Source of the DNA: a virus
Reading direction: 5' to 3' (one strand)
DNA length: 34,103 nt
UHGV virus genome: UHGV-0238489
Within the stretch, counting starts at the first letter, position 1. Each line of letters starts with the position of its first letter. Below the pieces are notes generated by a model. That model searched no databases. It was not told the DNA's origin and saw only the letters and a list, made by a program, of their open reading frames with translations. Of the stretch, positions 1,280 through 34,103 are shown in pieces. Made by a program: the position numbers and the translations under genes.

Positions 1280-1375
1280 AAAGCCTCCCGATGATGTTAC
1301 TGCGTACTTCAATTTCCTGATTTAAATAACAAAAACTCACCGTGCATTTACTGCACAAATAGGCACCGTAAATGG

Positions 1376-3068: not shown

Positions 3069-3344
3069 ATGAGTATCCGTATCGAGATAAATCATCAGTA
3101 TGTAGTTACAAGTGATCGCTACCAGTTCATTTTGCAGGAAAAGAAAGTGGCGACTGCTGGAAAAAATGAAGGTAGCGAATGGCTTGATACTGTCGGGTAT
3201 TATCCGACAATTCAAAAACTGGTTTCTGGTCTGGCGCTACATGACCTTTTAAATGGCGGTGCTGATAGTTTTGCGGCGTTGGGTGAGCAGGTCGAGCAGT
3301 TGGGGCTGCAATGTCAGACCGCGTTTTGTGCTGATGGTCGTTGA
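3069..3344 (+). CDS. hypothetical early protein (P2 orf82/83-like)
   Basis: A 91-aa ORF preceded by GGAGA and ending at the A start. Confidence 0.45.
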   Translation: MSIRIEINHQYVVTSDRYQFILQEKKVATAGKNEGSEWLDTVGYYPTIQKLVSGLALHDLLNGGADSFAALGEQVEQLGLQCQTAFCADGR

Positions 3345-5610
3345 GACTCGGGGGCGTATTGTCCCCTCGCTAGCCCTGCCAATATCTAAGCGCACCGGCG
3401 ATACTTTCGTTGGTGCTTATCCCTGGAATGCTCCCCGCGCTGCCATTGGCCGTGACAGACCCCTTACACGTGCCGAATTCCGTCAGGTGCAAGGTGTTTT
3501 ATACCGGATAGACCGCCTGCCTTTCTTTCTTAAGACGTTGTTTACATCCCGTTATAACTTCATTCGCCGCACAAAGAGCCCGCTCGGGGCGCTCTATTTC
3601 CTGAAAAACACCTTTGAGCGGAAGCTGTTGCCGCGTCTTGAGCGCGTTAACGAGCTGTGCGGGATGAATGAATCTGCGTCGAATGGTTTCTTGTCTGAGC
3701 GTGACGAATATGCGTGCTTGCCTGATATGAATGACAAAGAGCTGAAAAAATTTGCGGCCAGAATTGCCGCGCAGCTCTGGCGTAAATACGAGGAACTCAG
3801 CGACGAATGGGCTGAGGCTTTCGGCGGTAAAGAGACCCTTTTCACCGATGAGGCGCAGGCGCACATATATGGTCAGGTGGCCGGTGTTGCACACGCGTTC
3901 AACTTAACCCCGCTCTACTGGAAAAAATACCGTAAGGGTCAGATGACGATCCGCATGGCGTTTTCCGCTATTTCCCGTCTGATAAAAGATGATTGGTGGG
4001 TTAACCAGCTCAAGGCACAGCGTATGCGCTGGCGCGAGGCGCTGCTTATCGCTGCCGGTGAGGTCAACAAAGACCGTTCACCTTACGCAAGCAAAATGGC
4101 GATCCGCGAGGTTCACTCGCGCCGCTTGGCTAATCTCGAATATCTGAAATCCTGCGAACTGGAAAACAAAGTCACCGGCGAACGTATCGACCTTATCAGT
4201 AAAGTCATGGGGAGTATTTCAAACCCTGAAATACGCCGTATGGAGCTGATGAACACCATTGCCGGAATTGAACGCTACGCGGCCAGCGTTGGTGATGTGG
4301 GAATGTTTATCACGCTGACCACGCCGTCGAAGTATCACCCGACCCGACAGGTCGACAAAGGTGACAGCAAAATGGTGCAGCTGAATCACGGCTGGAACGA
4401 AACCGCATTCACCCCTAAAAACGGCCAGCGCTATCTGTGCCGAATCTGGAGTCTGATGCGCACCGCTTTCAAAGATAACGATTTGGAAGTGTATGGGATG
4501 CGCGTTGTCGAGCCGCACCACGACGGCACGCCACACTGGCATATGATGCTTTTTTGCAAACCCGGTCAGCGTAAAGCTATCAACGAAATTATGCGTCGTT
4601 ATGCCCTCAAAGAGGACGGACACGAAAAGGGTGCGGCAAAACAGCGCTTTGAGTCACGCCATCTTAATCAGGGCGGCGCGGCGGGTTATATCGCTAAATA
4701 CATTGCCAAAAATATCGACGGTTACGCTCTCGACGGTCAGCTCGACCACGACACTGGCAAGCCTCTGAAAGATACGGCCGCAGCCGTAACCGCATGGGCG
4801 TCTACATGGCGTATCCCTCAGTTTAAACCGATTGGCCTCCCGACAATGGGCGCTTACCGCGAACTCCGCAAGCTGCCGCGAGGGGTGAGTATCGCCAGCG
4901 AGTTTGACGACCGCGTCGAGGCCGTCCGGGCTGCTGCAGATGAGGGGGAGTTTGACCTGTATATCATCGCGCAGGGTGGGGCAAACAAGCCGCGCAATGC
5001 TCAGTCGGTCAGGGTCGCCCGTAGGGTGACGGATGAGGTTAACGAATACGAGGAAGATATCGATAGGGTGGTCGGTATTTATGCCCCTCACCTTGGGGTG
5101 AGCCGCGTACATGTAACCCGCACAGCGGAATGGCGCATCGTTCCCAAGGTTTTGGCTGTTGAGCCTTTGACCTTAAAAAGCGGCGCTGCCGCGCCTCGGA
5201 GTCCTGTCAATAACTGTGGAAAGCTCACTGGCGGTGATGATCCAGTTATGACACCCACACCGTCTGAACATGCTGCAGCGGTGTTAGATCTGATTGATAA
5301 AGGGCTTATCGCATGGGATGACCCCGAAGTTGTGACGGTGCTCAGGAGCGCATTAAAACACGGCGCGCCGCAGCAAAATCGACAGCAAAGAATAGATGAG
5401 CCATTAAAACCGCATCAGATAGCACCATCAGGACGAATGACAAAAGCCGAGAGGGCTCAGATTCCGCGCATCCGCTTCGGACTGGCGCAGCAGGGTATCA
5501 CGCCGCAGCGGTGGGAACTTCAGGCGCTGGCTCGTGGCGGAATAGTGGTTTATGGCGAAAAAAGATTTGTATACCCGATAGCGGACGAGTGGGTGAAGCA
5601 TGAGGGGTGA
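3334..5610 (+). CDS. A: rolling-circle replication initiator endonuclease (P2 A-like), 758 aa from the ATG at 3334
   Basis: ORF 3253-5610. The in-frame ATG at 3334 overlaps the upstream stop and gives about 758 aa (P2 A is about 761 aa). It carries a HUH-like motif (PHHDGTPHWHMMLF) and an AGYIAKYIAKN tyrosine motif typical of Rep-type relaxases. Confidence 0.85.
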   Translation: MVVETRGRIVPSLALPISKRTGDTFVGAYPWNAPRAAIGRDRPLTRAEFRQVQGVLYRIDRLPFFLKTLFTSRYNFIRRTKSPLGALYFLKNTFERKLLPRLERVNELCGMNESASNGFLSERDEYACLPDMNDKELKKFAARIAAQLWRKYEELSDEWAEAFGGKETLFTDEAQAHIYGQVAGVAHAFNLTPLYWKKYRKGQMTIRMAFSAISRLIKDDWWVNQLKAQRMRWREALLIAAGEVNKDRSPYASKMAIREVHSRRLANLEYLKSCELENKVTGERIDLISKVMGSISNPEIRRMELMNTIAGIERYAASVGDVGMFITLTTPSKYHPTRQVDKGDSKMVQLNHGWNETAFTPKNGQRYLCRIWSLMRTAFKDNDLEVYGMRVVEPHHDGTPHWHMMLFCKPGQRKAINEIMRRYALKEDGHEKGAAKQRFESRHLNQGGAAGYIAKYIAKNIDGYALDGQLDHDTGKPLKDTAAAVTAWASTWRIPQFKPIGLPTMGAYRELRKLPRGVSIASEFDDRVEAVRAAADEGEFDLYIIAQGGANKPRNAQSVRVARRVTDEVNEYEEDIDRVVGIYAPHLGVSRVHVTRTAEWRIVPKVLAVEPLTLKSGAAAPRSPVNNCGKLTGGDDPVMTPTPSEHAAAVLDLIDKGLIAWDDPEVVTVLRSALKHGAPQQNRQQRIDEPLKPHQIAPSGRMTKAERAQIPRIRFGLAQQGITPQRWELQALARGGIVVYGEKRFVYPIADEWVKHEG

Positions 5611-5728
5611 TTTATATCCATCTAAATCATGGTGTTATGATGGCTGTGTGAGTTCTTTTCTGATTGGGGCTGCGTTCGACGGCTTGAAATGTTGTAAATG
5701 CCCATAATCTGGTTTAAAGTGTTTTTAT

Positions 5729-5833
5729 GCCAACGACTAGGAGTATCTCCAGTCATAAATGTTGGCCTCTACAGGCCTTTATATAGTGTTGCTCTTGTAC
5801 TGCCTTCTCTTTCGAGAGAAGGTATGTACAAGA
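5729..5833 (+). ncRNA. candidate structured non-coding RNA upstream of the RT (possible retron msr/msd-like or RT-associated ncRNA)
   Basis: The 327-bp non-coding leader contains two strong hairpins: 5729-5766 (gccaac...gttggc enclosing ggag-tat-ctcc) and 5793-5833 (a 17-18-bp stem, tcttgtac..ccttctct / agagaagg..gtacaaga, with a ttcg loop). I found no clear a1/a2 inverted repeat. Confidence 0.3.
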
Positions 5834-5936
5834 AGTAAAGCCTGCGAAGGGAGGGTGTCTGGGGTGAGGAAAGACTGAGAGTTAAAGCATTCATCTTAGA
5901 ATCCATTCAACTCAAAAAACAAAAGCCCAGCCAACG

Positions 5937-6926
5937 ATGAAACCCCTTAGTCTCGAAAAAGCCTTCAATATCGCATTCTTCGAAAAAGATTCCTTTCAAA
6001 ACTTTCTTTCGTTTGAACCATTTCAACAAACTAAATTTATAACCTTTGATGAAAGGTTAATTGCTGAGCCCAGTTCTAAACTAAAAGAGTATCACAAATT
6101 CATAAATGAATTTGTTCTTTCATACTTGAAAGTAAATAAGGATGTTGTGTTTTCGTATAGAAAAGGAAGCAGCACTTATGATGCAGTAAAACTTCATGCC
6201 TGTAGTAAGATATTCTTCAATACTGATATTAAAAACTTTTTCCCGTCGATAACTCGTGAATATGCACGATCAGTTTTAGTTGATAACTTATCGAACGTTC
6301 CCATTTCCGATTTAAATATACATCTGGATAAAATTTTAGATTATATTATTATCGATAATTCGTTGCCTGTAGGGTTCCCAACATCACCAGCTTTCAGCAA
6401 TGCCTGTTTATATGACTTTGATGTTGAGATGCAGCAATATTGTATTAACCATGAATATATATTCACGCGCTATTCAGATGATATTATTATTTCCTCTGAA
6501 AATGATGAGGGGTTTGAGAATATTAATTCTGTAGTAAGTGACCTGCTGGGTGAGTTTGGGAATGGGCATTTCAAACTAAACTCAGCAAAAACTAAATTGA
6601 TTAAAAAAGGCAGTAAGATTAAGCTGCTGGGGATGGTTATTTTACCATCTCAGATAGTCTCTGTTGATATTAAAATAAAAAGAAAACTTGAGCATTTAAT
6701 TCATTTTTATGTAACGGATAAAGATAAATTTATAGATTCTATAATAAAAGATCCTAAAGTTAAAACTAGCGGATTGAATAATAGCGAGATTTTGGAAAAG
6801 GGTGTTAATACAGTTTCTGGTCTTTTAAATCATATAAACACAATTGATAAGAGTTATCTCGATAAGCTAAAGAGAAAATACGGAAATACGATTGTCGATA
6901 TGCTTTTTTACAAGAATGTTAATTAA
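5937..6926 (+). CDS. reverse transcriptase, 329 aa (retron-type or Abi-type defence RT)
   Basis: RT motifs are readable in the translation: motif A NTDIKNFFPSI, motif B' LPVGFPTSPAFSN, motif C YSDD (FTRYSDDIIIS), motif D/E LNSAKTKLI. A NAxxH-like YDAVKLH and a VTG-like VSG are present. AT-rich codon usage contrasts with the phage backbone. Confidence 0.8.
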   Translation: MKPLSLEKAFNIAFFEKDSFQNFLSFEPFQQTKFITFDERLIAEPSSKLKEYHKFINEFVLSYLKVNKDVVFSYRKGSSTYDAVKLHACSKIFFNTDIKNFFPSITREYARSVLVDNLSNVPISDLNIHLDKILDYIIIDNSLPVGFPTSPAFSNACLYDFDVEMQQYCINHEYIFTRYSDDIIISSENDEGFENINSVVSDLLGEFGNGHFKLNSAKTKLIKKGSKIKLLGMVILPSQIVSVDIKIKRKLEHLIHFYVTDKDKFIDSIIKDPKVKTSGLNNSEILEKGVNTVSGLLNHINTIDKSYLDKLKRKYGNTIVDMLFYKNVN

Positions 6927-6927
6927 A

Positions 6928-8280
6928 ATGAAAATAAACATTGAGATCTCAAAAATCCAGCATGTTGAACATATGTCATTTGCTATTGATCTTTCTGAAA
7001 ATAAACTGACTTGCATTGTAGGAAAGAACGGTGCTGGAAAGACAACGTTAATCAAAGCAATTAAAAATTTACAATCAGCAGATACATTCATAAAGACATC
7101 TTCTAGATATATATTCAATCCTGACAGTAGCATAGTATATAATATTAATGATCAAAATATAGTATATGTCTATGATGAGAATTTGAAGGTAATAGACACT
7201 AAGCAAATAATTCCAGCAGATATTAAATCCAATCTTTATGTCGAGTTGCCCATTCCTCATGGAATGAGGTTCAATAACTTCCCAACACTTAGTAAAATTG
7301 ATACAGAACTTAGAAAAAGTATTGCGTTTGAAAACTATAGCGTTCCCGAGGATTTGATAAATATACTCAATGAGGTATATCAGTCTTCTTCTTACAATAA
7401 TCTTAAAGCATTTTCTGTAAAAAATGAAATTTTCTATTTCAGATTGAATGAGAACGGAACATACATAAGGGAGGATTACTTTAGCTCGGGTGAGTATTTC
7501 ATTTTGAATTTATTTAGAATGATTGAGCTCAAAAGAAAGTTCATTGTCATAGATGAGATAGATATATCACTAGACTCTTCGGCGCAAGTCCATCTTATAG
7601 CAGTGCTAAGGAAATATTGTCAGAGACACTCGGTGAATATTGTATTCACAACACATTCACTTGCTTTAATGCAAACGCTGAATGATGATGAATTGTACTA
7701 TATGTGCGAAAGTGATGCTGGAACTACAATTACAAATCGATCCTATAATTATATAAAAAGTACGCTTTTTGGATTTAAAGGATGGGATAAGTACATTCTT
7801 ACTGAAGATGAAGTTCTGCAAAACTTCTTAGAATATATAATTAATGCCTCTGGGAATGATTACTTCTACGAATACAAAATAATATATGTTGGTGGAGGAA
7901 CTAATGTCATTGATTTAATGCGTCGTAATGAGAGAGAGAGCTTTCTCACGACTCAACAGAATGTGATCTCAGTGTTAGACGGAGATCAATTAGGTCAAAG
8001 GCATGCTCGAGGTGAAAATATTTTATGCATACCTTTCCAAAGTGTTGAGAAGGATTTCTATCAAGCATACGGCCAAGATGAATCGATCCCGAGAATTACA
8101 ACTAGAGGTAACGATAAACTTGATAAGCAAGTTTATCGAGGGGTAGTGAAAACCTATAACAACGGTTGGGATGAAACTAGGGTTTTTGAATACCTTGAGA
8201 GGTTAAAGCCTGATGAGTGTGAGGCTTTCAGGCAAAAAATTAGAGCATTTCTCCAAAGAAATATTTCGCCAGAGGGTTGA
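6928..8280 (+). CDS. ABC-type ATPase with C-terminal Toprim-like domain (OLD-family-like nuclease ATPase), about 450 aa
   Basis: Walker A GKNGAGKTT, ABC signature-like FSSGEY, Walker B FIVIDEID, H-loop FTTHS. The C-terminus has a conserved acidic ILTEDE and a DxD VLDGDQ, as in Toprim. Start is 1 nt after the RT stop (alternative upstream ATGs at 6892 and 6916). Confidence 0.7.
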   Translation: MKINIEISKIQHVEHMSFAIDLSENKLTCIVGKNGAGKTTLIKAIKNLQSADTFIKTSSRYIFNPDSSIVYNINDQNIVYVYDENLKVIDTKQIIPADIKSNLYVELPIPHGMRFNNFPTLSKIDTELRKSIAFENYSVPEDLINILNEVYQSSSYNNLKAFSVKNEIFYFRLNENGTYIREDYFSSGEYFILNLFRMIELKRKFIVIDEIDISLDSSAQVHLIAVLRKYCQRHSVNIVFTTHSLALMQTLNDDELYYMCESDAGTTITNRSYNYIKSTLFGFKGWDKYILTEDEVLQNFLEYIINASGNDYFYEYKIIYVGGGTNVIDLMRRNERESFLTTQQNVISVLDGDQLGQRHARGENILCIPFQSVEKDFYQAYGQDESIPRITTRGNDKLDKQVYRGVVKTYNNGWDETRVFEYLERLKPDECEAFRQKIRAFLQRNISPEG

Positions 8281-8422
8281 ATATAAGCTTCGGGATCTCA
8301 TGCGTCTCTATCTGCATGAAATTGCATTTGATAATTCCTATTTTTCTCGTGAGCTGTGTCACGTTAGGCGCAGCTCAGGGCTCATAATGCACCTGCATTA
8401 AAACCGACCCATCAAGCGCGCA

Positions 8423-8441
8423 GGCGAGGCGGGGATAGCAC
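8423..8441. other. cos: cos site candidate (19-mer ggcgaggcggggatagcac)
   Basis: It differs by one base from the P2 cohesive-end sequence as I recall it (GGCGAGGCGGGGAAAGCAC). It lies in a GC-rich stretch between the accessory locus and Q, the position expected for P2 cos. Confidence 0.6.
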
Positions 8442-8577
8442 TGCGCGCCAGACGTGGTGACAGCCTTTATTTTTACGCACCTGAGCGCGTCGTGGTGGCG
8501 CTGTCGTTTTGCGGGTCGGCGCTGATGTTTGTCGGGCGGTTAGGGGGCGTGTGGTGCGTCTGAGGCGATCAGTGATG

Positions 8578-8598
8578 ATGCCGCCCGGAGGCGGCATT
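8578..8598. terminator. hairpin gccgcc-cgga-ggcggc followed by atttt (possible terminator of the accessory operon, or bidirectional)
   Basis: GC stem followed by a T-run on the plus strand, between cos and the Q stop. Confidence 0.35.
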
Positions 8599-8608
8599 TT
8601 GAGAGGAG

Positions 8609-9625
8609 TTATTCTGATTCGAGGCTGTAATCTTTGAAGCGGATCACCTCCATTCCGAGCCAGTCATTTATCTCTTTGAAACGCTCCTGCAGCGGCGTCA
8701 GTTCGTTACGCACAAACACCCGCGCCACCTTCTCAACGTCACCCATTGAACCAATATTCTCAGGCTTGCCGCCCATCAACTGAAACGGCACGCGGTGCGC
8801 ATCGAGCAGGTCGGCGGCGCTCACCTTTTTGATATTGAAAAAATCATCCTTCGTGGCGACTTCACTCAACGGCACAATTTTGATCCCGTCTGGCTTGCCG
8901 TTGGGCGCGTAGAAAAACAAATTTTTGAAATTCCCGAGTCCTTTCGAGTCGCGCATCGCGTTGCGGAGCGATTCAACGTCGGTACTGCTTTGCGCGGCGT
9001 CGGTGACGTACATGATGTATCCCGCGTGTGCGCCATTCTGGTAATACTTGCGGCGAAACAGGGTGGCGGATTCATTCAGCCAGGCGGAATTTAGCGCGCT
9101 CAGGTATTCCGGCATCCCGTACAGCTCCTGATTGATATCAGGCTCAAGCAGATGACACACCGAGCCGGGGGCGAACGGGTGCGGCTGGGTGTAGCTCGAC
9201 ACGTACCAGTAAACGCCATCCTCGACACCCCGGCGGGTGTATTTAGCTGGTGAAGTTTCCAGCTTTAAGAGCTGGCCGGTGACGCTCATGCGCTTCTCAA
9301 GGTAGCCGTTGGCAAATACCAGATAATCGAGTACCAGGCGGCTGAAGTCCTGACGTGACAGCAACGGGTGCGGAATGTAGGTGCTAACCAGAATGTTACG
9401 TTTCACGTAAATCGGGGAACTGTGATGGACGGCGGCGCGCAGGCTTTTTGCCAGTCCCGAGAAGTTGACCGGCGGCTCGTACCATTTCCCGTTATGGATA
9501 CATTCGACGTAATCGAGAATATCGCGGCGATCCAGAACCGGGGAAGGCTCACCAAAAGTAAACGCCTCCATTTTTTGCGGTGCGCTGGCGGTCATTGTGA
9601 CGGGTTTCGTCTGTCGTTTTTTCAT
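8609..9625 (-). CDS. Q: portal protein (P2 Q-like), 338 aa
   Basis: Length and position next to cos, convergent with the terminase gene. Forms the leftward late operon Q-P. Confidence 0.85.
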   Translation of the reverse strand: MKKRQTKPVTMTASAPQKMEAFTFGEPSPVLDRRDILDYVECIHNGKWYEPPVNFSGLAKSLRAAVHHSSPIYVKRNILVSTYIPHPLLSRQDFSRLVLDYLVFANGYLEKRMSVTGQLLKLETSPAKYTRRGVEDGVYWYVSSYTQPHPFAPGSVCHLLEPDINQELYGMPEYLSALNSAWLNESATLFRRKYYQNGAHAGYIMYVTDAAQSSTDVESLRNAMRDSKGLGNFKNLFFYAPNGKPDGIKIVPLSEVATKDDFFNIKKVSAADLLDAHRVPFQLMGGKPENIGSMGDVEKVARVFVRNELTPLQERFKEINDWLGMEVIRFKDYSLESE

Positions 9626-15337: not shown

Positions 15338-15833
15338 ACGCTGCAGTGTGGCCGCCGTGCTGGCGCTGGCGGCGCTGGTGCCTGACTTTCGTCTGCTTAA
15401 CACCTCGCCCGAGGGACTGGCACTGATTGTCGACCTCGAAGGATGTCGCCTGACGCCTTACCAGTGCAGCGCGGGTGTGTGGACGTCAGGTATTGGTCAC
15501 ACTGCCGGTGTCGTCCCGAAAGGGGATATTACCGAACAGCGCGCGGCGGAAAACCTCGTTGCGGATGTCCTCAACACTGAGCAACGGCTCGCGGTCTGTG
15601 TGCCGGTGGATATGCCACCGCGCGTCTATGACACGCTGGTCAGTTTTGCCTTTAACGTGGGAACTGGTGCCGCCTGCCGCTCGACGCTGGTCTCGTATAT
15701 CAAACGTCATCAGTGGTGGCAGGCGTGCGACCAGCTTACCCGCTGGGTGTACGTGAATGGAGTCCGAAACCGGGGGCTGGAAAACCGACGCGATCGGGAA
15801 CGAACTTATTGCATGAAAGGGGTATCCCTATGA
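15321..15833 (+). CDS. K: endolysin, GH24-type lysozyme with hydrophobic N-terminal segment (P2 K position)
   Basis: LEGCRLTPYQCSAGVWTSGIGH matches the phage lysozyme catalytic E...D...T pattern. The N-terminal AAVLALAALVP segment is signal-anchor-like. Confidence 0.75.
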   Translation: MSSIIKRCSVAAVLALAALVPDFRLLNTSPEGLALIVDLEGCRLTPYQCSAGVWTSGIGHTAGVVPKGDITEQRAAENLVADVLNTEQRLAVCVPVDMPPRVYDTLVSFAFNVGTGAACRSTLVSYIKRHQWWQACDQLTRWVYVNGVRNRGLENRRDRERTYCMKGVSL

Positions 15834-16258
15834 AAAAACTGACATCACTGATTTTTGATTTCCTGCTGGCGCTGATGTTGTTCAGAGGACTGACTGACCC
15901 GCAAAGTGCGGCGGTCAACTTTGTTGCAGTGTGGGCGCTGTTTGATTGTCTGGTCTGCATTGCTGCCAGCTTTGCCGGTGTGGCTGCATATGACCACTGG
16001 CATAGGAACCGGCAAAAAGGTATTCCGCTGAATGACTCGGTAATGAAGATATTCCGCATGGTTTTTTGTCGTAAGCACTCCCCGCTGCGCCGCTTCTGGT
16101 CGTTGCTGTTTTTTACTGGCGTTTTTGCCTGCCTGGTCGGCGCGGGATGGGTGTTTACTGCGCTGCTGTATCTGATTTGTGCCCTGGTGCTTAAGGCTGT
16201 GCGCTCCGCTTACCGTCAGCGCATTGAGGGGGAAGGTTTGTGTCCAGATTCATTGTGA
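15830..16258 (+). CDS. lysA: LysA-like membrane protein (lysis timing), 142 aa
   Basis: The ATG at 15830 overlaps the K stop. Multiple TM segments. Position matches P2 lysA. Confidence 0.6.
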   Translation: MKKLTSLIFDFLLALMLFRGLTDPQSAAVNFVAVWALFDCLVCIAASFAGVAAYDHWHRNRQKGIPLNDSVMKIFRMVFCRKHSPLRRFWSLLFFTGVFACLVGAGWVFTALLYLICALVLKAVRSAYRQRIEGEGLCPDSL

Positions 16259-16668
16259 TTCTTCTGGCCGGTTTGCTCGCCGTGGTGCTGTGGCTGCGCC
16301 ATGATAACGCGAATTTATCCCGTTCCTTTGAAAAGGCAAACCGGGTCGCCAGCGAGCAAAAGACGACGATTGGCATGCTGAAAAATCAGCTTGCTGTATC
16401 GCAGCGGATCACCAGGACGAATGAAGCCGCGCAGGTCAGGCTTAGCGACGAGCTGAGCGCCGCCGGTGAGCTGGCGGCAAGACGTGAGCACACCATTACG
16501 AGACTGCTGAATGAAAACGAGGATTTACGCCGCTGGTATAGCGCTGATTTACCTGATGCTGTGCGCCGGTTGCACACCCGCACCAGCTGCGTCTCCGCCG
16601 CCCATTGTCTACAACGCCTGCCCGAAGGTGAGCCTTTGCCCAATGCCGGGAAGCGAGCCCACGACTAA
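16240..16668 (+). CDS. lysB: LysB-like (Rz-type inner-membrane spanin)
   Basis: N-terminal TM segment followed by a coiled-coil-like charged region. Contains an embedded out-of-frame lipoprotein ORF. Confidence 0.65.
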   Translation: MSRFIVILLAGLLAVVLWLRHDNANLSRSFEKANRVASEQKTTIGMLKNQLAVSQRITRTNEAAQVRLSDELSAAGELAARREHTITRLLNENEDLRRWYSADLPDAVRRLHTRTSCVSAAHCLQRLPEGEPLPNAGKRAHD

Positions 16669-16801
16669 CGGCGACCTGAGTGCTGATATTCGCAGGCTTG
16701 AGCACGCGCTCACCGCCTGCGCGCTCAAGGTCGAAACCATCAAAGACTGCCAGGATAAAATCGATGCAAAAAATGAAAAGCCTGCGCCAGGCGCTCACTG
16801 A
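16511..16801 (+). CDS. lysC: LysC-like (Rz1-type outer-membrane lipoprotein spanin), partly embedded in lysB in another frame
   Basis: Signal peptide with lipobox-like LMLCAGC. Proline-rich. Overlaps the 3' end of lysB, as Rz1 does. Confidence 0.55.
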   Translation: MKTRIYAAGIALIYLMLCAGCTPAPAASPPPIVYNACPKVSLCPMPGSEPTTNGDLSADIRRLEHALTACALKVETIKDCQDKIDAKNEKPAPGAH

Positions 16802-17231
16802 CGCCGTGCCGCAGTTAAAAACCAATCCCGAAATGATGCGTATCTTTGCCGATGAGGGAAATATCGATGCGCGTCTTGCCGCCTCGCTGTCACATGAAAA
16901 GAATTACACGCTGAATGTGATCGTCTGCGATTTTGTCGGCGACCCTGACCTGATTTTCGTGCCAGTGGTGGCGTGGCTCAGGGAGAACCAGCCGGATATC
17001 TGCACGCTGGATGAGGGGCGTAAAAAGGGCTATCGATTCCAGATGGATTTAAACGACGGGGATAATGTTGATATCAGTATCAGCCTGCAGCTCACCGAGC
17101 GCACGCTTGTCAGGGATGAAAACGGGGCTCTACACGTCAGCTATGCGCCTGAACCGCCATTACCCGAGCCGGTGACGCGTCCTACTGAGCTGTATATCAA
17201 TGGCGAACTGGTGAGCAAATGGGATGAATGA
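16764..17231 (+). CDS. R: tail completion protein R-like, 155 aa from MQKMKSL
   Basis: ORF 16680-17231. The internal ATG at 16764 gives 155 aa, as for P2 R. Confidence 0.7.
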   Translation: MQKMKSLRQALTDAVPQLKTNPEMMRIFADEGNIDARLAASLSHEKNYTLNVIVCDFVGDPDLIFVPVVAWLRENQPDICTLDEGRKKGYRFQMDLNDGDNVDISISLQLTERTLVRDENGALHVSYAPEPPLPEPVTRPTELYINGELVSKWDE

Positions 17232-17682
17232 ATTAAAGCCTTTTGATGACAAACTTGCGGGGTTGATTGCGGCAATATCACCTGCGGGTCGGCGTAAGCT
17301 GGCCGCTGAAATCGCAAAGGAACTGCGCAGATCGCAACAGCAACGCATCAAACAGCAAAAAGCACCTGATAGCTCACCGTATCAGGCACGAAAACGCCAG
17401 CCACTCAGGGCAAAAAAGGGGCGGATTAAAAAGGCGATGTTTCAGAAGCTGCGAACGAGCCGCTACATGAAAGCCAGTGGCCGCAGTGATACTGCCGTGG
17501 TGGAGTTCACTGGCAAGGTGCAACACATTGCGCAGATTCATCAATACGGACTTAAAGACCGGCCAAACCCTCATGCTCAGAACGTGCAATATCCAGCTCG
17601 TCAACTGCTTGGATTTAGCCACAATGAAGAGGTTATCGTTGAAAAAATAATCATCGAATATCTTGATAGGAAAAGGCTTTAG
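17224..17682 (+). CDS. S: tail completion protein S-like, 152 aa
   Basis: Overlaps the R stop. Size matches P2 S. Confidence 0.75.
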   Translation: MNELKPFDDKLAGLIAAISPAGRRKLAAEIAKELRRSQQQRIKQQKAPDSSPYQARKRQPLRAKKGRIKKAMFQKLRTSRYMKASGRSDTAVVEFTGKVQHIAQIHQYGLKDRPNPHAQNVQYPARQLLGFSHNEEVIVEKIIIEYLDRKRL

Positions 17683-18035
17683 AAACTCTAAGGTGATCCG
17701 TTAACAAAGGATTGAAAGGAACACCTTCCTTTTTATTCCCTAGATTTTATGCATTTAGTACTATTCTGCTCTTCCGGATACTACAAGTTTGGTTCTTAGC
17801 TCTAAGTTCTTGAGACCTCTCTTAATGAAAATACTAGTAAGAATGATGTTGTTCGTATCTTAATTTATTGTTATGTTTGGTTTTTTAGAGCTGTGGATGT
17901 TATCGTGATAACATCCTTAAGAACTCGATTTATCTATGATTTTTATGCTTCCGGAGGGCTTAAAAGTGCGTAATGAAATGGACTTTATTTGATTATTCAA
18001 TTTGGTATATGGTGTGTGCAAAACATTAATACAAT

Positions 18036-19853
18036 ATGGCGAATGGAATAAAGTTTAAAATGAATTTTATAAATAAAATGCTTAGATCGACTACTATAGA
18101 CTTTAAGAGAAAAACCTTTTATCTAGATTTTCTATTTCTTTTTGTTTGTGTTTGGACGCTTATCTCTTCTGGTTCTGAAGTTCAATATTATCTTTTTAAA
18201 TTTATTGGTAGTGATAGTTCCACCCTTTACGGCAGCGTCTTTGAAGATGCTATAGCCCGGATGCCTACATTTAATCAATATATAAAGGGTGCTTACACAG
18301 TCTCTGGTAATTTCGGTTTTATTGCTGCGCTGCTTATAGTCGCTGTGTCTTTGTTTTATCAGAGTGCGATACAGGTGTTTATCGTTTGTGTTATTAGTTC
18401 AGTGTTTGGATTGACGATAACAGATATTGTTATGTTCGTTTTTAACGATACTCTAACTACGCAATCAGTTACTGAAAGCATAATTGCGAATACATTGGGT
18501 TCGCCTATAATTGCAAGTTTCGTTGTTTTCCTGTTTTGTATAAAAAAGATTCTCTTTGGGGCTGTTAATGTTAATTTAGCTTTTCGCTTTGTTATGAGTT
18601 ATATAGTTTATGTTTTATTGTGTTCTTTAATATTATTGATTACTTACTACGTTGTATGTTTTTTCTACAGACCAACAGCTGTAAATTTTTCTGTATCAAC
18701 TTCAGAAGATTTTTCAGGGGATTATTTTATTACGCAAAAAGATAAGGCCTCGAAAAAAGACGACCCTGAGAAACAAAAACGCTTTTCATTGTTAGGTTCT
18801 CCCGTTGAAATAAATGAGTCTGTACGTGTTTATGGAGACATTAAAACTATAAGGTCAAAAACACATGAAAATGAAACCTTTAATTTAAAAATACTACCAT
18901 TACTTAATTGCATAGATGGCAGTTCAGTTAACGCTGCATCATCTAGATCTTTAACGTATAGCAATGTGAAAAATTTATCCATTAAATCGTCCGAGCTCAT
19001 CTCAATACTACTTATAAATGACAAGGTTGGTCATGTTAAAAGTAGTGACGAGCTTGTAAATATGTTTTCTGTTAAAAAGAATGACAGAAATGGATTTGAT
19101 GTTACAAAAATTAATGATGGTGCTTTTAGTTATTATCCATCCGAGTCTAACGCCGGGTTCTATATGGCTACGCCAGTGTCGGAATTTACAGGGGATCAAG
19201 CCAAGAAGATTGTCCAATATACATTGGATATTGATGGCGCTGAAAAAACAATTAGCGTTGAAGTTGAAAGGCTACGTTCAATAAATAAAGATAAGAAAAT
19301 GCACTGCGAAGTTGCATCTTTCAGAGATTCTGACGGTGATATTAACATAAAGGCTGATGAATCTGTATATCTTGGTCTTCTTGTTAAGATGGAATCAGAA
19401 GAGGAGAAGGAATTCTACTCACTTTTTAATGAAGATAATAGCAAAATTGTAGTGGATGGAAATTTACTATATGTCCAGGCTCAAAAAGTTCCGAAAGAAG
19501 ATTTGCTTGGGAAGTATTTTGTTAAAGGTTATCTGGATGGATTTATTCTCCATTCATTTGATAAATTATCATTAGATGGGAGAAATGTAGAGTCTAATAA
19601 GATGGATAACCTGATGGTCATGGGTGATGATATATATGCAAGTGTATCTGATGGGACTAACTTGGTAATAAGCGGTAGGGCTGATCTTTTTTATAAAAAT
19701 AGGCTACGGCAAAATAAAACATTATGGGAGTCGTCAAGTGATAATACGCTAATACTTGGCGGGCTTGGTGGATTGCTGGTTTCATTATTGTTGTGGGGAA
19801 GTAATAAAATTTTTACAACTCTACGTAAAAATGAAGTTATTAATATGTTTTAA
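18036..19853 (+). CDS. polytopic membrane protein of unknown function, 605 aa; cargo gene in an AT-rich island between S and V
   Basis: About five N-terminal TM helices, a roughly 350-aa hydrophilic domain and a C-terminal TM (LILGGLGGLLVSLLLWG). Strongly AT-rich codon usage unlike flanking phage genes. I recognise no catalytic motif. Confidence 0.6.
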   Translation: MANGIKFKMNFINKMLRSTTIDFKRKTFYLDFLFLFVCVWTLISSGSEVQYYLFKFIGSDSSTLYGSVFEDAIARMPTFNQYIKGAYTVSGNFGFIAALLIVAVSLFYQSAIQVFIVCVISSVFGLTITDIVMFVFNDTLTTQSVTESIIANTLGSPIIASFVVFLFCIKKILFGAVNVNLAFRFVMSYIVYVLLCSLILLITYYVVCFFYRPTAVNFSVSTSEDFSGDYFITQKDKASKKDDPEKQKRFSLLGSPVEINESVRVYGDIKTIRSKTHENETFNLKILPLLNCIDGSSVNAASSRSLTYSNVKNLSIKSSELISILLINDKVGHVKSSDELVNMFSVKKNDRNGFDVTKINDGAFSYYPSESNAGFYMATPVSEFTGDQAKKIVQYTLDIDGAEKTISVEVERLRSINKDKKMHCEVASFRDSDGDINIKADESVYLGLLVKMESEEEKEFYSLFNEDNSKIVVDGNLLYVQAQKVPKEDLLGKYFVKGYLDGFILHSFDKLSLDGRNVESNKMDNLMVMGDDIYASVSDGTNLVISGRADLFYKNRLRQNKTLWESSSDNTLILGGLGGLLVSLLLWGSNKIFTTLRKNEVINMF

Positions 19854-19864
19854 GTTTTTTGAAA

Positions 19865-19885
19865 GGGCGGGTAATACCGCCATTT
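19865..19885 (+). terminator. hairpin gggcgg-gtaata-ccgcc followed by a weak T-tract, downstream of the membrane-protein ORF
   Basis: Stem-loop directly after the stop at 19853. Confidence 0.35.
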
Positions 19886-20014
19886 CATATGGGTTGTACG
19901 GTTTTGTTTAATTGTAATTGCATCTTGCTCTCTAGTTAACATATTGCAAATCATTATTGTCTTAGATGTTTATATTAAACTGTATTCAAATTTCTATTAA
20001 TTATTTTTGTTTTC

Positions 20015-22519: not shown

Positions 22520-24205
22520 ATGACAGTGAAATATAAAACCGTTATCACCAAAGCCGGTGCGGAAAAACTGGCGGCGGCGACGCTCCCGAACGGGAAGAAA
22601 GTCAATTTTGCGGCGATGGCCGTCGGGGATGGTGGCGGAAAACTGCCCGAGCCGGACGCCAGCCAGACAAAACTCGTCAATGAGGTCTGGCGTCATGCGT
22701 TGAACAAAATCAGCCTGGACAAAAAACATAAAAATTATGTCGTGGCGGAGCTGGTGATCCCCCCGGAGACCGGCGGTTTCTGGCTGCGTGAAATGGGGCT
22801 TTACGATGACACCGGCACGCTGATTGCGGTCGGCAATATGGCCGAAAGTTATAAGCCCGAACTGGCGGAAGGGTCAGGCCGCGCACAGACGCTGCGCATG
22901 GTGATCATGGTGAGCGATATCGACACTGTCGAGCTGTCCATAGATACGACACTGGTGATGGCGACGCAGGATTATGTCGACGATAAACTCGCAGAGCATG
23001 AGCAGTCCCGTCGCCATCCTGACGCCACGCTGAAAGAAAAAGGGTTCACGCAGTTAAGCAGTGCGACCGACAGCACGTCTGAGGCGCTCGCCGCGACACC
23101 GAAAGCGGTTAAGGCGGCGTATGACCTTGCAAAAGGTAAATACTCGGCTCAGGACGCGACCACGGCGCAGAAAGGGATTGTTCAGCTCAGCAGCGCCATC
23201 GACAGCGTGTCTGAGACGCTCGCCGCAACGCCAAAAGCGGTGAAAGCGGCGAATGATAATGCTGATGGCCGCGTTCCTTCCTCGCGCAAAATTAACGGAC
23301 ACTCCCTGAATGCTGACACCAGTGTCACCTCGCAGGATATTTTCGACGACCAGGCTATTGGGCTGGTAACGGAGGATTTAGACACCCTTAAAACGCCGGG
23401 TATTTACTTTCAGCCAGCGAATTCTAATACCTCAGCCGCCAGACATTACCCTGAAAATAACGCCGGGACGCTGGTCATTTATAAAAATGCCGGAGTGACT
23501 CAGGTATACCGGGTTTATAACAGCTCCCGGAGCTACTCGCGCAGCCAGTATTCAACAGGCGCATGGACACCGTGGACGCCTGATGATGTTTTTCCGGTAG
23601 GCGCTCCCGTTGCGTGGCCGTCTGACAGTGTTCCTGCTGGCTATGCCGTCATGCAGGGACAAACTTTTGATAAAGTCGCGTATCCGCTGCTTGCTGTGGT
23701 GTACCCATCGGGTGTTATTCCTGATATGCGGGGCTGGACAATCAAAGGTAAACCCGCAAGTGGGCGCGCTATTTTGTCTCAGGAGCAGGACGGCATTAAA
23801 TCGCACGCCCACGGTGCCAGCGCATCGAGCACCGATTTAGGGACGAAAACCACCAGTGCTTTTGACCACGGAACGAAAACTACCACGACCTTTGACTACG
23901 GGACAAAAACCACTAATGCAACCGGCAACCATGCGCACACTTTTACCGTACACCGGGGAGATCAGGCCGGGGGACAGGCCGCCGACGGTAACGAAATAGC
24001 GACGGGAACGAAAACAACATCAACTGCAGGTAATCACGCGCATACCGTGGCGATTGGTGCCCACAATCATAATGTCGGGATTGGCGCACACTCGCACTCC
24101 GTTGCTATTGGCGCACACGGTCACACCATTACGATCGCCGCGTCGGGTAATGCAGAAAACACCATCAAAAACATCGCATTTAACTATATCGTGAGACTCG
24201 CATAA
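22520..24205 (+). CDS. H: tail fibre protein H-like, 561 aa, with internal repeats and C-terminal HxH repeats
   Basis: Conserved N-terminal region ([21 protein letters not shown]...) typical of P2-family H. Tandem [20 protein letters not shown] motif. C-terminal GNHAHT / IGAHxH repeats. Confidence 0.8.
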
Positions 24206-24783
24206 TGACGTTTAAAATGACCGGAGAAAGCCGGACTATCACTGTGTATAACTTTCGTGCAGACACCTGTGAATTTATTGGAAAAGGTGACGCCCTGATA
24301 CCGGCATTTACCGGATTGCCCGCCTGCTGCACCAGTGAAAAGCCCCCGGAAACCCGAGACGGATTTATTCCGGTTTATGACACTGAAAATGGTTGCTGGG
24401 CTATCACTGAAGACCACCGGGGTGAGGTTGTCTATGACACCGAAACAGGTCATGAGAGGGAGATAACCGAGCCGGGTCAGTATCCGGCAGGAACAACACC
24501 GGTTGTGCCGGAAAACCCGTGGCAGAAATGGGATGGTAAAACATGGGTTGATGATGCTGATGCTGCACGTAATGCATTGACAGAGGCTGCGAAAAACAAC
24601 AAAAACAGGCTTCTTAAACAGGCCAATACTGCGGTTGCGACATTACAGGACTCCGTTGATCTGGAGATGGCAACCGACGATGAAAAAACGCACCTCATTG
24701 CATGGAAAAAATACCGTGTTTTACTGAGCCGCATCCAGCCGGAGGATGCTCCGGATATTGAATGGCCGCCGCTGCCAGTCTGA
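24205..24783 (+). CDS. G: tail fibre assembly chaperone G-like, 192 aa
   Basis: The start overlaps the H stop. Size and position match P2 G. Confidence 0.7.
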   Translation: MTFKMTGESRTITVYNFRADTCEFIGKGDALIPAFTGLPACCTSEKPPETRDGFIPVYDTENGCWAITEDHRGEVVYDTETGHEREITEPGQYPAGTTPVVPENPWQKWDGKTWVDDADAARNALTEAAKNNKNRLLKQANTAVATLQDSVDLEMATDDEKTHLIAWKKYRVLLSRIQPEDAPDIEWPPLPV

Positions 24784-24790
24784 TCCGACA

Positions 24791-24816
24791 TCTGGCGGGC
24801 AGTTGCCCGCCTTTTC
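24791..24816 (+). terminator. intrinsic terminator after G (ggcgggca-gt-tgcccgcc then tttt)
   Basis: Perfect 8-bp GC-rich stem followed by a T-run. Confidence 0.6.
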
Positions 24817-24918
24817 CTTTCCCGTCGTTGTGTCAGACCTTAGCCAACCCTGACAAATAGCCCGCACCCGCCACACAACAGAAAATATCACTCACCCCTT
24901 AACCACGGAGTTAAACGG

Positions 24919-26112
24919 ATGAGTGACTATCATCACGGCGTGCAGGTCATCGAGATTAACGATGGCGTGCGCACCATTTCCACCGTTTCGACGGCCATCA
25001 TCGGCATGGTCTGCACGGCCAGCGATGCTGACGAAAAAACATTTCCCCTCAATGAGCCGGTGCTCATTACGAACGTGCAGAGCGCTATCGGTAAGGCCGG
25101 TAAACAGGGCACGCTGTCGGCGTCCCTGCAGGCTATCGCTGACCAGTGCAAGCCGGTCATCGTGGCCGTGCGTGTGGCCGAAGGTATTGAAGATCCGGAG
25201 AACCCCGAGGCGGCGCACAAACAGACCATTTCTAATATCATCGGCACCACCGACGAAAACGGCAAATATACCGGGCTGAAAGCCCTGCTGACGGCGAAAA
25301 CCGTCACCGGCGTTAAGCCACGGATTCTCGGCGTGCCGGGGCTGGATTCACAGGAGGTGGCGACCGCACTCGCGTCCACCTGTCAGAGCCTGCGCGCCTT
25401 TGGCTATGTCAGCGCATGGGGCTGTAAAACCATTTCCGAGGCCATCGACTACCGCGAGAATTTCAGCCAGCGTGAGCTGATGGTCATCTTCCCTGATTTT
25501 CTGACATGGGACACCACGGCGAACGCGACCGCGACAGCCTGGGCGACGGCGCGCGCGCTCGGCCTGCGTGCCAAAATCGACCAGACGGTCGGCTGGCATA
25601 AAACCCTGTCTAACGTTGGTGTTAACGGTGTGACCGGCGTCAGTGCCTCAGTATCGTGGGATTTGCAGGAACCGGCGACCGACGCCAACCTGCTGAATCA
25701 GGCCGGTGTCACCACGCTTATCCGCAATGATGGTTTCAAGTTTTGGGGAAACCGTACCTGCTCGGATGATCCGCTTTTCCTGTTTGAGAACTACACCCGC
25801 ACCGCGCAGGTACTGGCCGACACGATGGCGGAGGCGCACGCGTGGGCGATGGATAAACCCATTACCCCGACCCTCATTCGCGACATCGTTTCCGGTATCA
25901 ATGCCAAATTCCGCGAGCTGAAAACCAGTGGTTATATCGTTGACGGCTTCTGCTGGTACGACCCGGAGTCGAACGACACCGCGACCCTGAAAGTGGGGAA
26001 ACTGTATATCGATTACGACTATACCCCCGTCCCGCCGCTGGAAAACCTGACCCTGCGCCAGCGCATCACCGATACCTACCTGGCGAACCTGTCGGACTCG
26101 GTCAACAGCTAA
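24919..26112 (+). CDS. FI: contractile tail sheath protein (P2 FI-like), 397 aa
   Basis: Size matches P2 FI (about 396 aa). Precedes the tube gene. Confidence 0.9.
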   Translation: MSDYHHGVQVIEINDGVRTISTVSTAIIGMVCTASDADEKTFPLNEPVLITNVQSAIGKAGKQGTLSASLQAIADQCKPVIVAVRVAEGIEDPENPEAAHKQTISNIIGTTDENGKYTGLKALLTAKTVTGVKPRILGVPGLDSQEVATALASTCQSLRAFGYVSAWGCKTISEAIDYRENFSQRELMVIFPDFLTWDTTANATATAWATARALGLRAKIDQTVGWHKTLSNVGVNGVTGVSASVSWDLQEPATDANLLNQAGVTTLIRNDGFKFWGNRTCSDDPLFLFENYTRTAQVLADTMAEAHAWAMDKPITPTLIRDIVSGINAKFRELKTSGYIVDGFCWYDPESNDTATLKVGKLYIDYDYTPVPPLENLTLRQRITDTYLANLSDSVNS

Positions 26113-31236: not shown

Positions 31237-31317
31237 CGATGTGTTTTAATTATGTGTTTGTTTTATAAGTGAAAAATGAGTAAAATTAACACATTGAATA
31301 CGCCGGAGACCCTCATC

Positions 31318-31539
31318 ATGTTTCATTGTCCGAAATGCCATCATGCCGCCCACGCCCGCACGAGTCGCTATTTTACTGATACCACAAAAGAGCGGTATCA
31401 CCAGTGCACAAACATCAACTGCAGTTGCACGTTTGTGACCACTGAAACAGTCGAGCGTTTCATCGTATCACCGGGCGAGGTAGTACCCGCGCCGCCGCAT
31501 CCAACAACGTCAGGTCAGCAGCAAATTCAATGGATGTGA
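31318..31539 (+). CDS. ogr: Ogr-type zinc-finger late-gene transcriptional activator, 73 aa from MFHCPKC
   Basis: CPKC...CTNINCSC four-cysteine pattern with HARTSRYFTDTTKERYHQC, closely matching P2 Ogr as I recall it. The ORF track begins at an upstream ATG at 31276. Confidence 0.85.
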   Translation: MFHCPKCHHAAHARTSRYFTDTTKERYHQCTNINCSCTFVTTETVERFIVSPGEVVPAPPHPTTSGQQQIQWM

Positions 31540-31980: not shown

Positions 31981-33896
31981 GTATGTGCGCCGGGCATGGC
32001 GCGTAGCGCCGTGACTGGCGCTGTTCTTCAACTGTGGTGGCTGAAGAACGACTAAGAGGTGAAAGTCCTCCACACACCCGGTGAGGGGAAGTGTTAGCGG
32101 AAGGCAAGGGTGTTCATCGCGAGGTGAAATCTGAAGGAAGCCGGATGCAAAATGCTGGCCTGACGAACAGGAAGCGGTTAAGGCGGCGCAGCGGGGTAAG
32201 GTGGCATACATCACCAAAGCCCGATACTCACACGGAACGCTGTGACGTAGAGCCGACAGGCATAAGCAGGAAAGTCGCGCGAATTACCCCGGGAGATCTG
32301 CCGTCCTGTCAGTGTGCTACCGGCGTCGTAAGGTGCCGGGATGGGGCGGCAGAAGTCAGCCGACGCTGTAGTAGTGCTGCAAAACCGGCAGCATGAAGGG
32401 CCGAACATGATTAACCGTGATTAGGACATCCGAACCCGATGATGATTAATGAAGCACAAGCGCAGGCAACTGCGGCCAGCGGCAGAGGAGACGGACGGTA
32501 TCCGTCAGGGCTGCATGATGGCGCTGAAATCAGCACGGCGGCGGGTGGGCAAACGAAAGCGGAAGTGCCGCTGACGATGGAAGCGGTGATAACGAGAGAA
32601 AACCTGATGCTGGCTTATCAGCGCGTGGTGGAAAACAAAGGCGCGGCGGGGGTGGATAACCTCAGCGTGGCGGAGTTGAAACCGTGGCTGAAGAAGAACT
32701 GGCGCAGTGTCAGGCAGGCATTGATTGACGGAAACTACCAGCCGCGGGCAATACGCCGGATGGATATCCCGAAGCCGGATGGCGGCGTGAGAATCTTAGG
32801 CATCCCGACGGTGGTGGACAGGCTTATCCAGCAGGCGATAGCGCAGCAGTTAAGCGCCATCGTGGACAAAAGCTTCTCAGACTCCAACGGCTTCCGGCCG
32901 GGGCGCAACGCATGGCAGGCGGTGCAACAGGCACAGCGTTACATACGGGGCGGCAAACGGTGGGTGGTGGATATGGATCTGGAGAAGTTCTTTGACCGGG
33001 TGGATCACAGACTCCTGATGACGCGTCTGGCCAGAACGATAAAGGACAGGCGGGTGCTGAGACTGATACGCCGCTACCTGAAAGCGGAAATAGTCCGGGA
33101 CGGGCAAAGGGAGAAACGGCAGGAGGGCATGCCGCAGGGCGGCCCGCTGTCGCCGTTACTGTCGAACATCCTGCTGGATGAACTGGATAAAGAACTGGAG
33201 CGTCGTTGACACAGCTTCTGCCGCTACGCAGACGACTGCAACATCAACGTAAGCAGCCGGAAAGCGGGCGACCATCTGCTGAAGAACATCAGGGCGTTCG
33301 TGGAGAACAAAATGAAACTGAAGGTGAATGAGAAGAAGAGCGCGGTGGCGCGCCCGTGGGAGCGGAAGTTCCTCGGGTACAGTGTGACATGGCACAAACA
33401 GGCGAAGCTGAAAATAGCCCTGACGAGCGTGAACAGGCTGAAGGAGAAAGTCCGCAGTCTGACCACGGGAAACCGGAGCAAATCAGTGAAAGCGACAATC
33501 AATGCCCTGACGCCAGTGCTGCGTGGATGGATAAGCTACTTCAGGCTGACGGAAGTCAGAGGAGTGCAGGAAGAGCTGGACGGCTGGATCAAACGGAAAC
33601 TGCGGTGCCTGTTGTGGCGGCAGTGGAAGAGGCCGGGAACCCGGACGAAGAACCTGCAAAGAGCGGGGCTGAGTAAGGACAGGGCGATGATCTCAGCGTA
33701 CAACAACCATGGGCCATGGTGGAACTCAGGGTCAAGCCATATGAATCAGGCGATAAAGAATGCGTGGTTCAGCAGGCAGGGTCTGATATCACTGCTGGAA
33801 CAGCAGAGGCAGTTCCAGTGTTAACATGAACCGCCGTATGCGGAGCCGCATGTACGGTGGTGTGAGAGGACGGCGGGAGTGATCCCGCCTCCTACT
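31981..33896 (+). mobile_element. group II intron (bacterial, class C-like), about 1.9 kb, inserted just after an intrinsic terminator
   Basis: GTGCG-like 5' end at 31986. An RT/maturase ORF sits inside. Domain V-like hairpin at about 33829-33860 (ccgtatgcgg-agc-cgcatgtacgg) and a domain VI-like bulged hairpin at about 33864-33895. Insertion after a terminator stem-loop is typical of IIC introns. Boundaries are approximate (about +/-10 nt). Confidence 0.7.
32439..33824 (+). pseudogene. group II intron-encoded RT/maturase interrupted by a single in-frame TGA (33207-33209)
   Basis: ORFs 32439-33209 and 33300-33824 are in the same frame. The sequence reads ...LDELDKELERR-TGA-HSFCRYADDCNINV..., so the stop replaces the codon just before the YADD motif. 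RT motifs (GIPTVVDRLIQQA, LPQGGPLSPLLSNILL) precede a maturase-like C-terminus. Confidence 0.7.
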
Positions 33897-33961
33897 CGAT
33901 CGATGTGGTCAATGTGTGGACATTGTAATAAATAAATCCATTTATTTCATTAGGTTAGAAC

Positions 33962-33984
33962 AAAAAAATAAGCCCGTGTAAGGG
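33962..33984. repeat. attR: att core copy (attR side, next to ogr)
   Basis: Exact 23-bp direct repeat of 159-181. The right copy continues as agatt, matching the P2 core as I recall it. Confidence 0.75.
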
Positions 33985-34103
33985 AGATTACACAGGCTAA
34001 GGAGGTGGTTCCTGGTACAGCTAGCATTTTATGGGTTATGTTTTTCAGCGAAACGGATGATAACCTTAATAAATGCAGCTGTATGTGATCGGTTTCTAAG
34101 AAT

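Follow-up and report, generated by a model that had tools for sequence, protein, structure and literature searches.

The G-FI interval of a P2-like prophage of E. coli: a probable operon boundary with the Z/fun accessory slot left empty

The interval between the tail-fibre assembly gene G and the tail sheath gene FI in a P2-like prophage of E. coli is very probably a plain operon boundary at which the Z/fun accessory slot has been left empty. The prophage is contained complete in the stretch of DNA analysed here (UHGV virus genome UHGV-0238489, 34,103 nucleotides, referred to throughout as the window). The interval measures exactly 135 bp (24784–24918), from the TGA stop codon of G (24781–24783) to the ATG of FI at 24919, and is mostly accounted for by a putative terminator, an activator site, a -10 element, a transcription start and a ribosome-binding site (Table 1). 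No gene, invertase cassette or remnant stands between G and the promoter pF, and the GC content across the gap (0.505–0.548) reveals no dip of the kind left by foreign DNA.

Of the two classic hotspots of P2, one is the Z/fun position, flanked by the tail-fibre genes on one side and the sheath gene on the other. It has been rediscovered by a systematic hotspot search, which reported defence-like genes, invertases and swaps of the tail fibre as its contents (bioRxiv 10.1101/2024.10.15.618418). Hotspots of antiviral genes have also been described in P2 (PMC9122126).

Genome organization and accessory slots

Pfam searches recovered, in P2 order, domains of integrase, HTH repressor, Cox, GPA, portal, GpR, tail S, baseplate V, tail fibre, Caudo_TAP, sheath, tube, GPD and Ogr_Delta. 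The P2 core order used for comparison was int, C-like repressor, cox, B and A; Q and P on the opposite strand; then O, N, M, L, the lysis genes, R, S, V, W, J, I, H, G, FI, FII, E, E', T, U, D and ogr. The window thus has the gene order of a P2-like (Peduovirus-type) phage, and the PGAP table of the near-identical prophage in E. coli A15 agrees with this. A protein identical to the window's G (WP_000143189.1) carries the PGAP name 'tail fiber assembly protein'.

Accessory genes are found in the P2 record after A (tin/old), between S and V (orf30) and between G and FI (fun(Z)). The first-pass annotation had placed cargo at the A/Q and S/V slots of the window and had described a G-FI gap of about 135 bp that holds a terminator and a probable late promoter, with the Z/fun position unoccupied; each of these points is borne out by the features in Table 1, the two signals of the gap by a hairpin and by alignment to pF of P2. 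At A/Q, an RT and an ATPase-Toprim effector together form, on their PADLOC matches, a type I-B retron, the msr/msd non-coding RNA of which is expected in 5611–5936. The DNA of this retron is shared with no INPHARED phage record beyond approximately 130 bp at its right edge. The S/V slot contains a single ORF of 605 amino acids without a match in Pfam, PADLOC or PHROG, a candidate for an uncharacterised accessory or defence gene; among 5426 complete E. coli genomes, its DNA was present only in that of A15, a strain from otter faeces in Mexico. V probably starts near 20083. Both slots coincide with dips in GC content, to 0.28–0.39 at 6000–8400 (A/Q) and 0.33–0.40 at 17400–19800 (S/V).

At the right end of the window, a group II intron with domains D1–D4 and the 3' catalytic domains (Rfam) lies between ogr and the CyaR/RyeE sRNA gene. 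Its encoded protein is split into a truncated RVT_1 part and a part with the maturase domain, and at the near-identical locus of E. coli A15 the ltrA gene is annotated by PGAP as a pseudogene with an internal stop. The A15 prophage is situated between yegR and yegQ.

Table 1. Features of the window that are discussed in the text, with the evidence for each
Feature	Position	Strand	Evidence or remark
Integrase	266–1312	-	Pfam
Replication protein A	3253–5610		Pfam
A/Q slot	5611–8608		
RT, A/Q slot	5937–6926		PADLOC RT_I-B, E = 8e-111
ATPase-Toprim effector, A/Q slot	6892–8280		PADLOC ATPase-Toprim_I-B, E = 1e-179
Portal protein Q	8609–9625	-	Pfam
S	17224–17682		
S/V slot	17683–19965		
605-aa ORF, S/V slot	18036–19853		
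Tail fibre H	22520–24205		Pfam
G, tail-fibre assembly protein	24205–24783	+	Pfam Caudo_TAP, E = 4.6e-36; last gene of the V-W-J-I-H-G late operon
ORF overlapping the gap	24721–24891	-	20–56 codons (range of the four overlapping ORFs)
ORF overlapping the gap	24746–24853	+	as above
ORF overlapping the gap	24762–24860	+	as above
ORF overlapping the gap	24833–24895	-	as above
Spacer, 10 nt, G stop codon to terminator	24784–24793	+	
Putative Rho-independent terminator of the V operon	24794–24821	+	Terminator scan and RNA fold
Putative activator (Ogr) binding site of pF	24823–24851	+	Aligns to P2 17555–17583
Core dyad TGT (24829–24831)-N12-CCA (24844–24846)	24829–24846		Pattern match at 24829–24847
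Inverted repeat TGTCAG (24831–24836) / CTGACA (24850–24855)	24831–24855	unstranded	Sequence reading (first-pass annotation)
Probable -10 element GAAAAT of pF	24881–24886	+	7–8 nt upstream of the aligned P2 start
Predicted transcription start of the F operon (FI, FII, E, E', T, U, D)	24893–24895	+	Homology: aligns to P2 17626–17628
Ribosome-binding site GGAG, 8 nt before the FI start codon	24907–24910	+	Sequence reading
FI, tail sheath, first gene of the F operon	24919–26112	+	Pfam Phage_sheath_1, Phage_sheath_1C, Gp18_domIII_N
Ogr-family zinc-finger late activator, expected to act at the pF site	31276–31539	+	Pfam Ogr_Delta, E = 2.5e-20
Group II intron	32113–33900		Rfam
Intron-encoded protein, truncated RVT_1	32439–33209		
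Intron-encoded protein, maturase domain	33300–33824		
CyaR/RyeE sRNA gene	33966–34051	-	

Comparison with other phages and prophages

The window was aligned with phages P2 (NC_001895) and Wphi and with Salmonella phage STYP1 (KX833211), an isolated P2-like phage, the alignments being unambiguous from the hairpin onward. P2 has the same order of genes (H, G, then FI, FII, E, E' and T) and, base for base from window position 24794, the same hairpin, activator site, -10 element, start region and ribosome-binding site. DNA identity is approximately 77% over 24794–25400, a segment that begins at the hairpin and extends into the 5' part of FI, and the two FI sequences are about 81% identical. Unlike in the window, G and FI are 2377 bp apart in P2, and the interval includes fun(Z) (1587 bp, minus strand, 15675–17261) and a separately annotated V-operon terminator at 15639–15666. 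The succession of terminator, minus-strand cargo and activator site is found in the P2 record at both S/orf30/V and G/fun(Z)/FI, which indicates that accessory slots lie between an operon terminator and the next late promoter. In Wphi the G-FI slot is occupied by orf44, and in this phage as in P2 the cargo stands at the point corresponding to the 10-nt spacer of the window. Similarity to the window begins exactly at the hairpin (24794) in P2, Wphi and most phage records.

STYP1 has an empty gap of 128 bp in which no feature is annotated and in which, as in the window, hairpin, TGT-N12-CCA, -10 element and ribosome-binding site follow in the same order; it differs in its host genus and in having 77.5% DNA identity over the matched segment. 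In E. coli A15 (NZ_CP028759) and in 36 E. coli genomes that carry the G-gap-FI segment of the window at an identity of at least 99%, this segment is 99–100% identical and the gap is again 135 bp. A15 also possesses the retron, the S/V cargo and the group II intron, its prophage organization matching that of the window throughout. One of the 36, WP2-S18-ESBL-07, is likewise empty at G-FI and carries a DUF3696 protein and a hypothetical protein at A/Q and a hypothetical gene of 987 bp at S/V.

The occupied versions of the slot (orf44 in Wphi; DUF5677, a Sll1717-type P-loop ATPase and DUF6650 in E. coli; invertase cassettes) have the flanking genes of the window and, on the right side of the insert, its pF module, but contain in addition either accessory DNA of 0.6–2.4 kb or a recombinase gene together with an invertible segment of the tail fibre. 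In one relative (locus L008), the FI region of which is 97% identical to the window at the DNA level, an insert of 864 bp occupies the slot, and similarity resumes at window position 24827, just before the activator site. The insert encodes a hexapeptide-repeat (acyltransferase-like) protein of 194 amino acids (6190–6774, minus strand; phrog_2154), which is apparently divided into two ORFs in locus L007. Another close FI relative (L074) has a family-25 glycosyltransferase of LPS biosynthesis in this position (1559–2302, minus strand). Both are cargo of a surface-modification type.

Occupancy of the slot

The frequencies that follow are rough, being drawn from 136 loci selected by similarity in FI, 12 annotated E. 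coli loci (13 with WP2-S18) and 60 rows of E. coli match starts. The loci with the closest FI relatives were collected from 80 IMG/VR viral contigs and from 80 bacterial genomes, one per species, and G-like and FI genes were located by profile searches; both genes were found in 136 of the 160 loci. The gap was at most 160 bp in 54 of the viral contigs, 161–400 bp in 19 and more than 400 bp in three; the corresponding numbers for the bacterial genomes were 34, 13 and 13, and for both sources 88, 32 and 16. Empty gaps are therefore the majority (88/136) among the loci closest in FI, a sample biased to the FI type of the window, which is closest to those of Enterobacter and Citrobacter prophages (89–95% protein identity). 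The slot was empty in 71 of the 99 loci having an FI at least 88% identical to that of the window, and in one of 12 among the most distant.

Within E. coli, empty G-FI slots are a minority and cargo or a DNA invertase is usual. Among 12 annotated loci sampled at even steps, two were cleanly empty (R4, 132 bp; JNE131328, 123 bp) and six carried cargo, consisting of DUF5677, a Sll1717-type P-loop ATPase, a hypothetical protein with DUF6650, two other single hypothetical proteins, and an IS3 fragment with hypothetical proteins. Three more had an invertase cassette or its remnants, and the last only pseudogene fragments of tail-fibre assembly. Fun(Z) of P2, for which the PGAP name is 'P-loop ATPase, Sll1717 family', was present in 13 of 5426 E. 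coli genomes, with all matches at an identity of at least 99%.

The complete E. coli genomes were also searched with window positions 24700–24918, and 60 rows were taken at even steps through the 1427 matching records. In four rows the match ran from the 3' end of G through the whole gap, these being empty sites with a G like that of the window. It began at the hairpin (query 93–104) in 29 rows, at the activator site (query 128–129; window 24828) in 24 and elsewhere in three. In 20 of the 24 rows starting at the activator site, the match adjoins a recombinase (DNA invertase) gene that belongs to an invertible tail-fibre segment. There are thus two recurrent points, the hairpin at 24794 and the activator site at 24828, at which similarity begins across phages and E. 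coli prophages.

The empty gap might alternatively be a scar, left when this lineage recently lost its Z/fun cargo by deletion, so that the empty state would be derived and short-lived. Slots that hold nothing but remnants do exist in E. coli, and the hexapeptide-repeat gene of L008 occupies the slot next to an FI region nearly identical to that of the window; since the one locus is occupied and the other empty, both forms occur within one FI lineage. The gap of the window, however, is free of remnant sequence and can be aligned over its full length, from the 3' end of G to the start of FI, to its empty counterpart in E. coli R4 (77.5% identity). It also aligns with that of STYP1, and these alignments argue for a long-lived arrangement. 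The same layout with a gap of 160 bp or less recurs in the 88 loci counted above, and the identical empty arrangement is shared by the 36 E. coli genomes, including WP2-S18-ESBL-07 with its different cargo at the other two slots. A recent deletion is consequently an improbable origin for the gap, and the reading as an ordinary boundary with an empty slot is retained.

The terminator hairpin

The hairpin consists of a stem of seven base pairs, all GC (GGCGGGC/GCCCGCC, 24794–24800 and 24805–24811), with an AGTT loop, as located by the terminator scan, and is followed at 24812–24821 by the T-tract TTTTCCTTTC, which has seven T's in 10 nt and is broken by CC. The fold energy of the RNA is -18.3 kcal/mol (z = -2.98), and only one of 200 shuffled sequences was as stable. 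With a GC-rich stem-loop, a T-rich tract and the last gene of an operon upstream, the structure is predicted to be an intrinsic terminator.

The empty gaps of relatives show on alignment a GC-rich hairpin followed by T's in the same position. Automatic scoring of hairpins and T-runs in 75 relatives was confounded, the minimum-energy fold having paired the T-run with upstream A's, and from that analysis fold energies and visual alignment alone were used. The stems of the relatives exist in two unrelated forms, GGCGGGC-N4-GCCCGCC and AGCCCTCC-N4-GGAGGGCT. Unrelated sequences in one position fit selection for structure and not for a sequence-specific site.

In P2, fun(Z) stands between G and the hairpin that adjoins pF. 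The P2 copy of this hairpin (17522–17548; 523–549 of locus L003) has a weakened stem (GGTGAGC versus GCCCGCC, with one wobble and one mismatch), as would fit relaxed selection in a phage whose V operon is served by another terminator.

It has also to be considered whether the hairpin at 24794–24811 is a conserved boundary element, such as a recombination junction or an insulator, that travels with the pF module and does not terminate the V operon. The homologous hairpin of P2 is indeed found beyond fun(Z), beside pF, while the V-operon terminator of that phage is annotated elsewhere, at 15639–15666, and in about half of the spread E. coli sample similarity begins exactly at the hairpin. In the window, however, it is the sole terminator-like structure after G, it begins 10 nt past the stop codon and it has the classic combination of stem and T-tract. 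The presence of a hairpin of unrelated sequence in the same position in relatives, and the mismatched stem of the P2 copy, are further points against such an element, which we consider very unlikely. The hairpin is accordingly treated here as the putative V-operon terminator.

The promoter pF and its activator site

The P2 record contains an 'activator binding site; activation of pF promoter' at 17555–17583, an F operon start at 17626–17628 and FI from 17652. By homology to these annotated signals, pF is assigned in the window to the DNA directly upstream of FI. P2 possesses four Ogr-dependent late promoters with the consensus TGT-N12-ACA (PMC3931495). The right half-site of pF is CCA, versus ACA in the consensus; the annotated activator site of P2 is centred on a matching TGT-N12-CCA dyad, pF of P2 being the same CCA variant. 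In the window the dyad is centred approximately 56 nt upstream of the predicted start, a partial dyad of the TGT-N12-ACA type being sought about 55 nt upstream. TGT-N12-CCA occurs 88–90 nt before the ATG of FI in 66 of 75 distinct empty gaps, a GA(A/C)AAT block at the -10 position is nearly invariant among the aligned relatives, and ACGGAGTT at the ribosome-binding site of FI is unchanged in nearly all of them.

The pattern TGT-N12-MCAA has four matches in the window versus 8.5 expected. Such a short pattern is not enriched and so cannot by itself identify late promoters, for which reason the pF call rests on positional homology to P2. A sigma-70 consensus scan of 24300–25300 returned no promoter, as expected if pF is activator-dependent, and is uninformative.

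As the late-promoter dyad, the first-pass annotation had proposed the inverted repeat tgtcag...ctgaca. The repeat is present and in the right place, but the conserved dyad is TGT-N12-CCA, with which it shares only its left arm. TGTCAG-N13-CTGACA is found in full in the closest relatives of the window and in part in two others (L116 and L144); in the alignments it is absent from P2, Wphi, STYP1 and the Enterobacter-type gaps. A 6-bp repeat of this kind is statistically unremarkable by itself.

Coding potential of the gap

No ORF lies wholly inside 24784–24918. Four ORFs of 20–56 codons overlap the gap (Table 1), of which the two longest on the plus strand begin inside G and the one of 56 codons on the minus strand ends inside G. 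In the closest non-identical relatives the latter frame is interrupted by in-frame stops and the plus-strand ORFs align only in part, several of the matches containing stops; the gap alignments also include 1-nt indels. As conserved genes these ORFs were rejected, since their similarity only reflects conservation of the DNA and their frames are broken by stops. Rfam gave nothing in the gap, whether the whole window was searched at the gathering threshold or 24700–25000 permissively (E <= 1), and PGAP annotates no CDS or other feature between G and FI in E. coli A15, WP2-S18-ESBL-07 or R4. A small ORF in the gap with conserved homologues, which the first-pass annotation had named as the observation that would contradict an empty slot, was looked for in the relatives and was not found.

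Some Enterobacter-type relatives, in which the gap is 374–393 bp, have a conserved small ORF in the slot (6650–6820, minus strand, in L047; also in L051, L068, L076, L077, L078, L100, L101 and L106). It comprises 56 codons as read, but the likely product is a protein of about 40 amino acids starting at an internal Met after GAGGTG (MTILLW...GDETEKDYEECPYD), with one hydrophobic helix and an acidic tail. The frame is open in nine distinct DNA versions; there is no match in Pfam or PHROG and no homolog in the window. At an occupied E. coli locus (NZ_AP040215; 2878–3045, minus strand, of L171), a predicted hypothetical protein of 55 amino acids in the PGAP annotation (WP_023908562.1) overlaps the conserved hairpin upstream of pF, its gene lying mostly in cargo-side DNA that is missing from the window.

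That the gap encodes a small protein or a small RNA overlooked by ORF finders and annotation pipelines is extremely unlikely: ORFs do overlap it, and the Enterobacter-type relatives have their membrane-peptide ORF of 40–56 codons in a longer version of the slot, but the overlapping frames are broken or only partly aligned and pass through 1-nt indels, a tblastn search of the window with the relatives' peptide gave nothing significant (best E = 0.63, elsewhere in the window), no Rfam family matches the gap, and regulatory signals take up most of the 135 bp.

Proposed operation of the boundary

At this boundary, late transcription of V-W-J-I-H-G would end at the GC-rich hairpin and T-tract, 10 nt past the stop codon of G, and transcription of FI-FII-E-E'-T-U-D would restart approximately 100 nt further on, at pF. 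With its weak -10 element and no recognisable -35, this promoter would depend on the phage's own zinc-finger activator Ogr, which would bind the TGT-N12-CCA dyad centred some 56 nt upstream of the start, and a leader of 25 nt with the GGAG ribosome-binding site would precede FI. Termination and Ogr-dependent initiation at these positions of the window are both proposed from the sequence and its homology to P2. In relatives, the accessory genes or the tail-fibre invertase lie between the stop codon of G and one of two elements, the hairpin or the activator site. These begin no more than 10 and 44 nt after that stop codon in the window, which leaves no room for a gene.

Exchange at the hotspot may proceed through two discrete right-hand junctions that flank the hairpin (24794 and 24828), such that cassettes either bring no terminator and reuse the resident one or bring their own and replace it, the bare succession of stop codon, hairpin and pF being the ancestral ground state. 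This scheme is put forward tentatively, as possible but on balance doubtful.

Significance

The gap in the window is an unoccupied instance of a known slot, with a terminator of a known kind and a known promoter, and nothing in it is new in kind. The hotspot, pF and the P2 operon-end terminators have already been described (P2 GenBank record; PMC3931495; PMC9122126; bioRxiv 10.1101/2024.10.15.618418; PMC13586616). A census of 1511 P2-like prophages reported no case with both main defence hotspots devoid of genes (PMC13586616), and a single minor slot without cargo is compatible with that result. An empty G-FI slot is a common and ordinary state. The value of the present observation is one of bookkeeping only, in that the G-FI slot has been fixed to the base and stands unoccupied in a prophage that has cargo in both of the other classic P2 slots; the gap can serve as a clean, base-accurate empty reference for delimiting cargo at the G-FI slot in other P2-like prophages.
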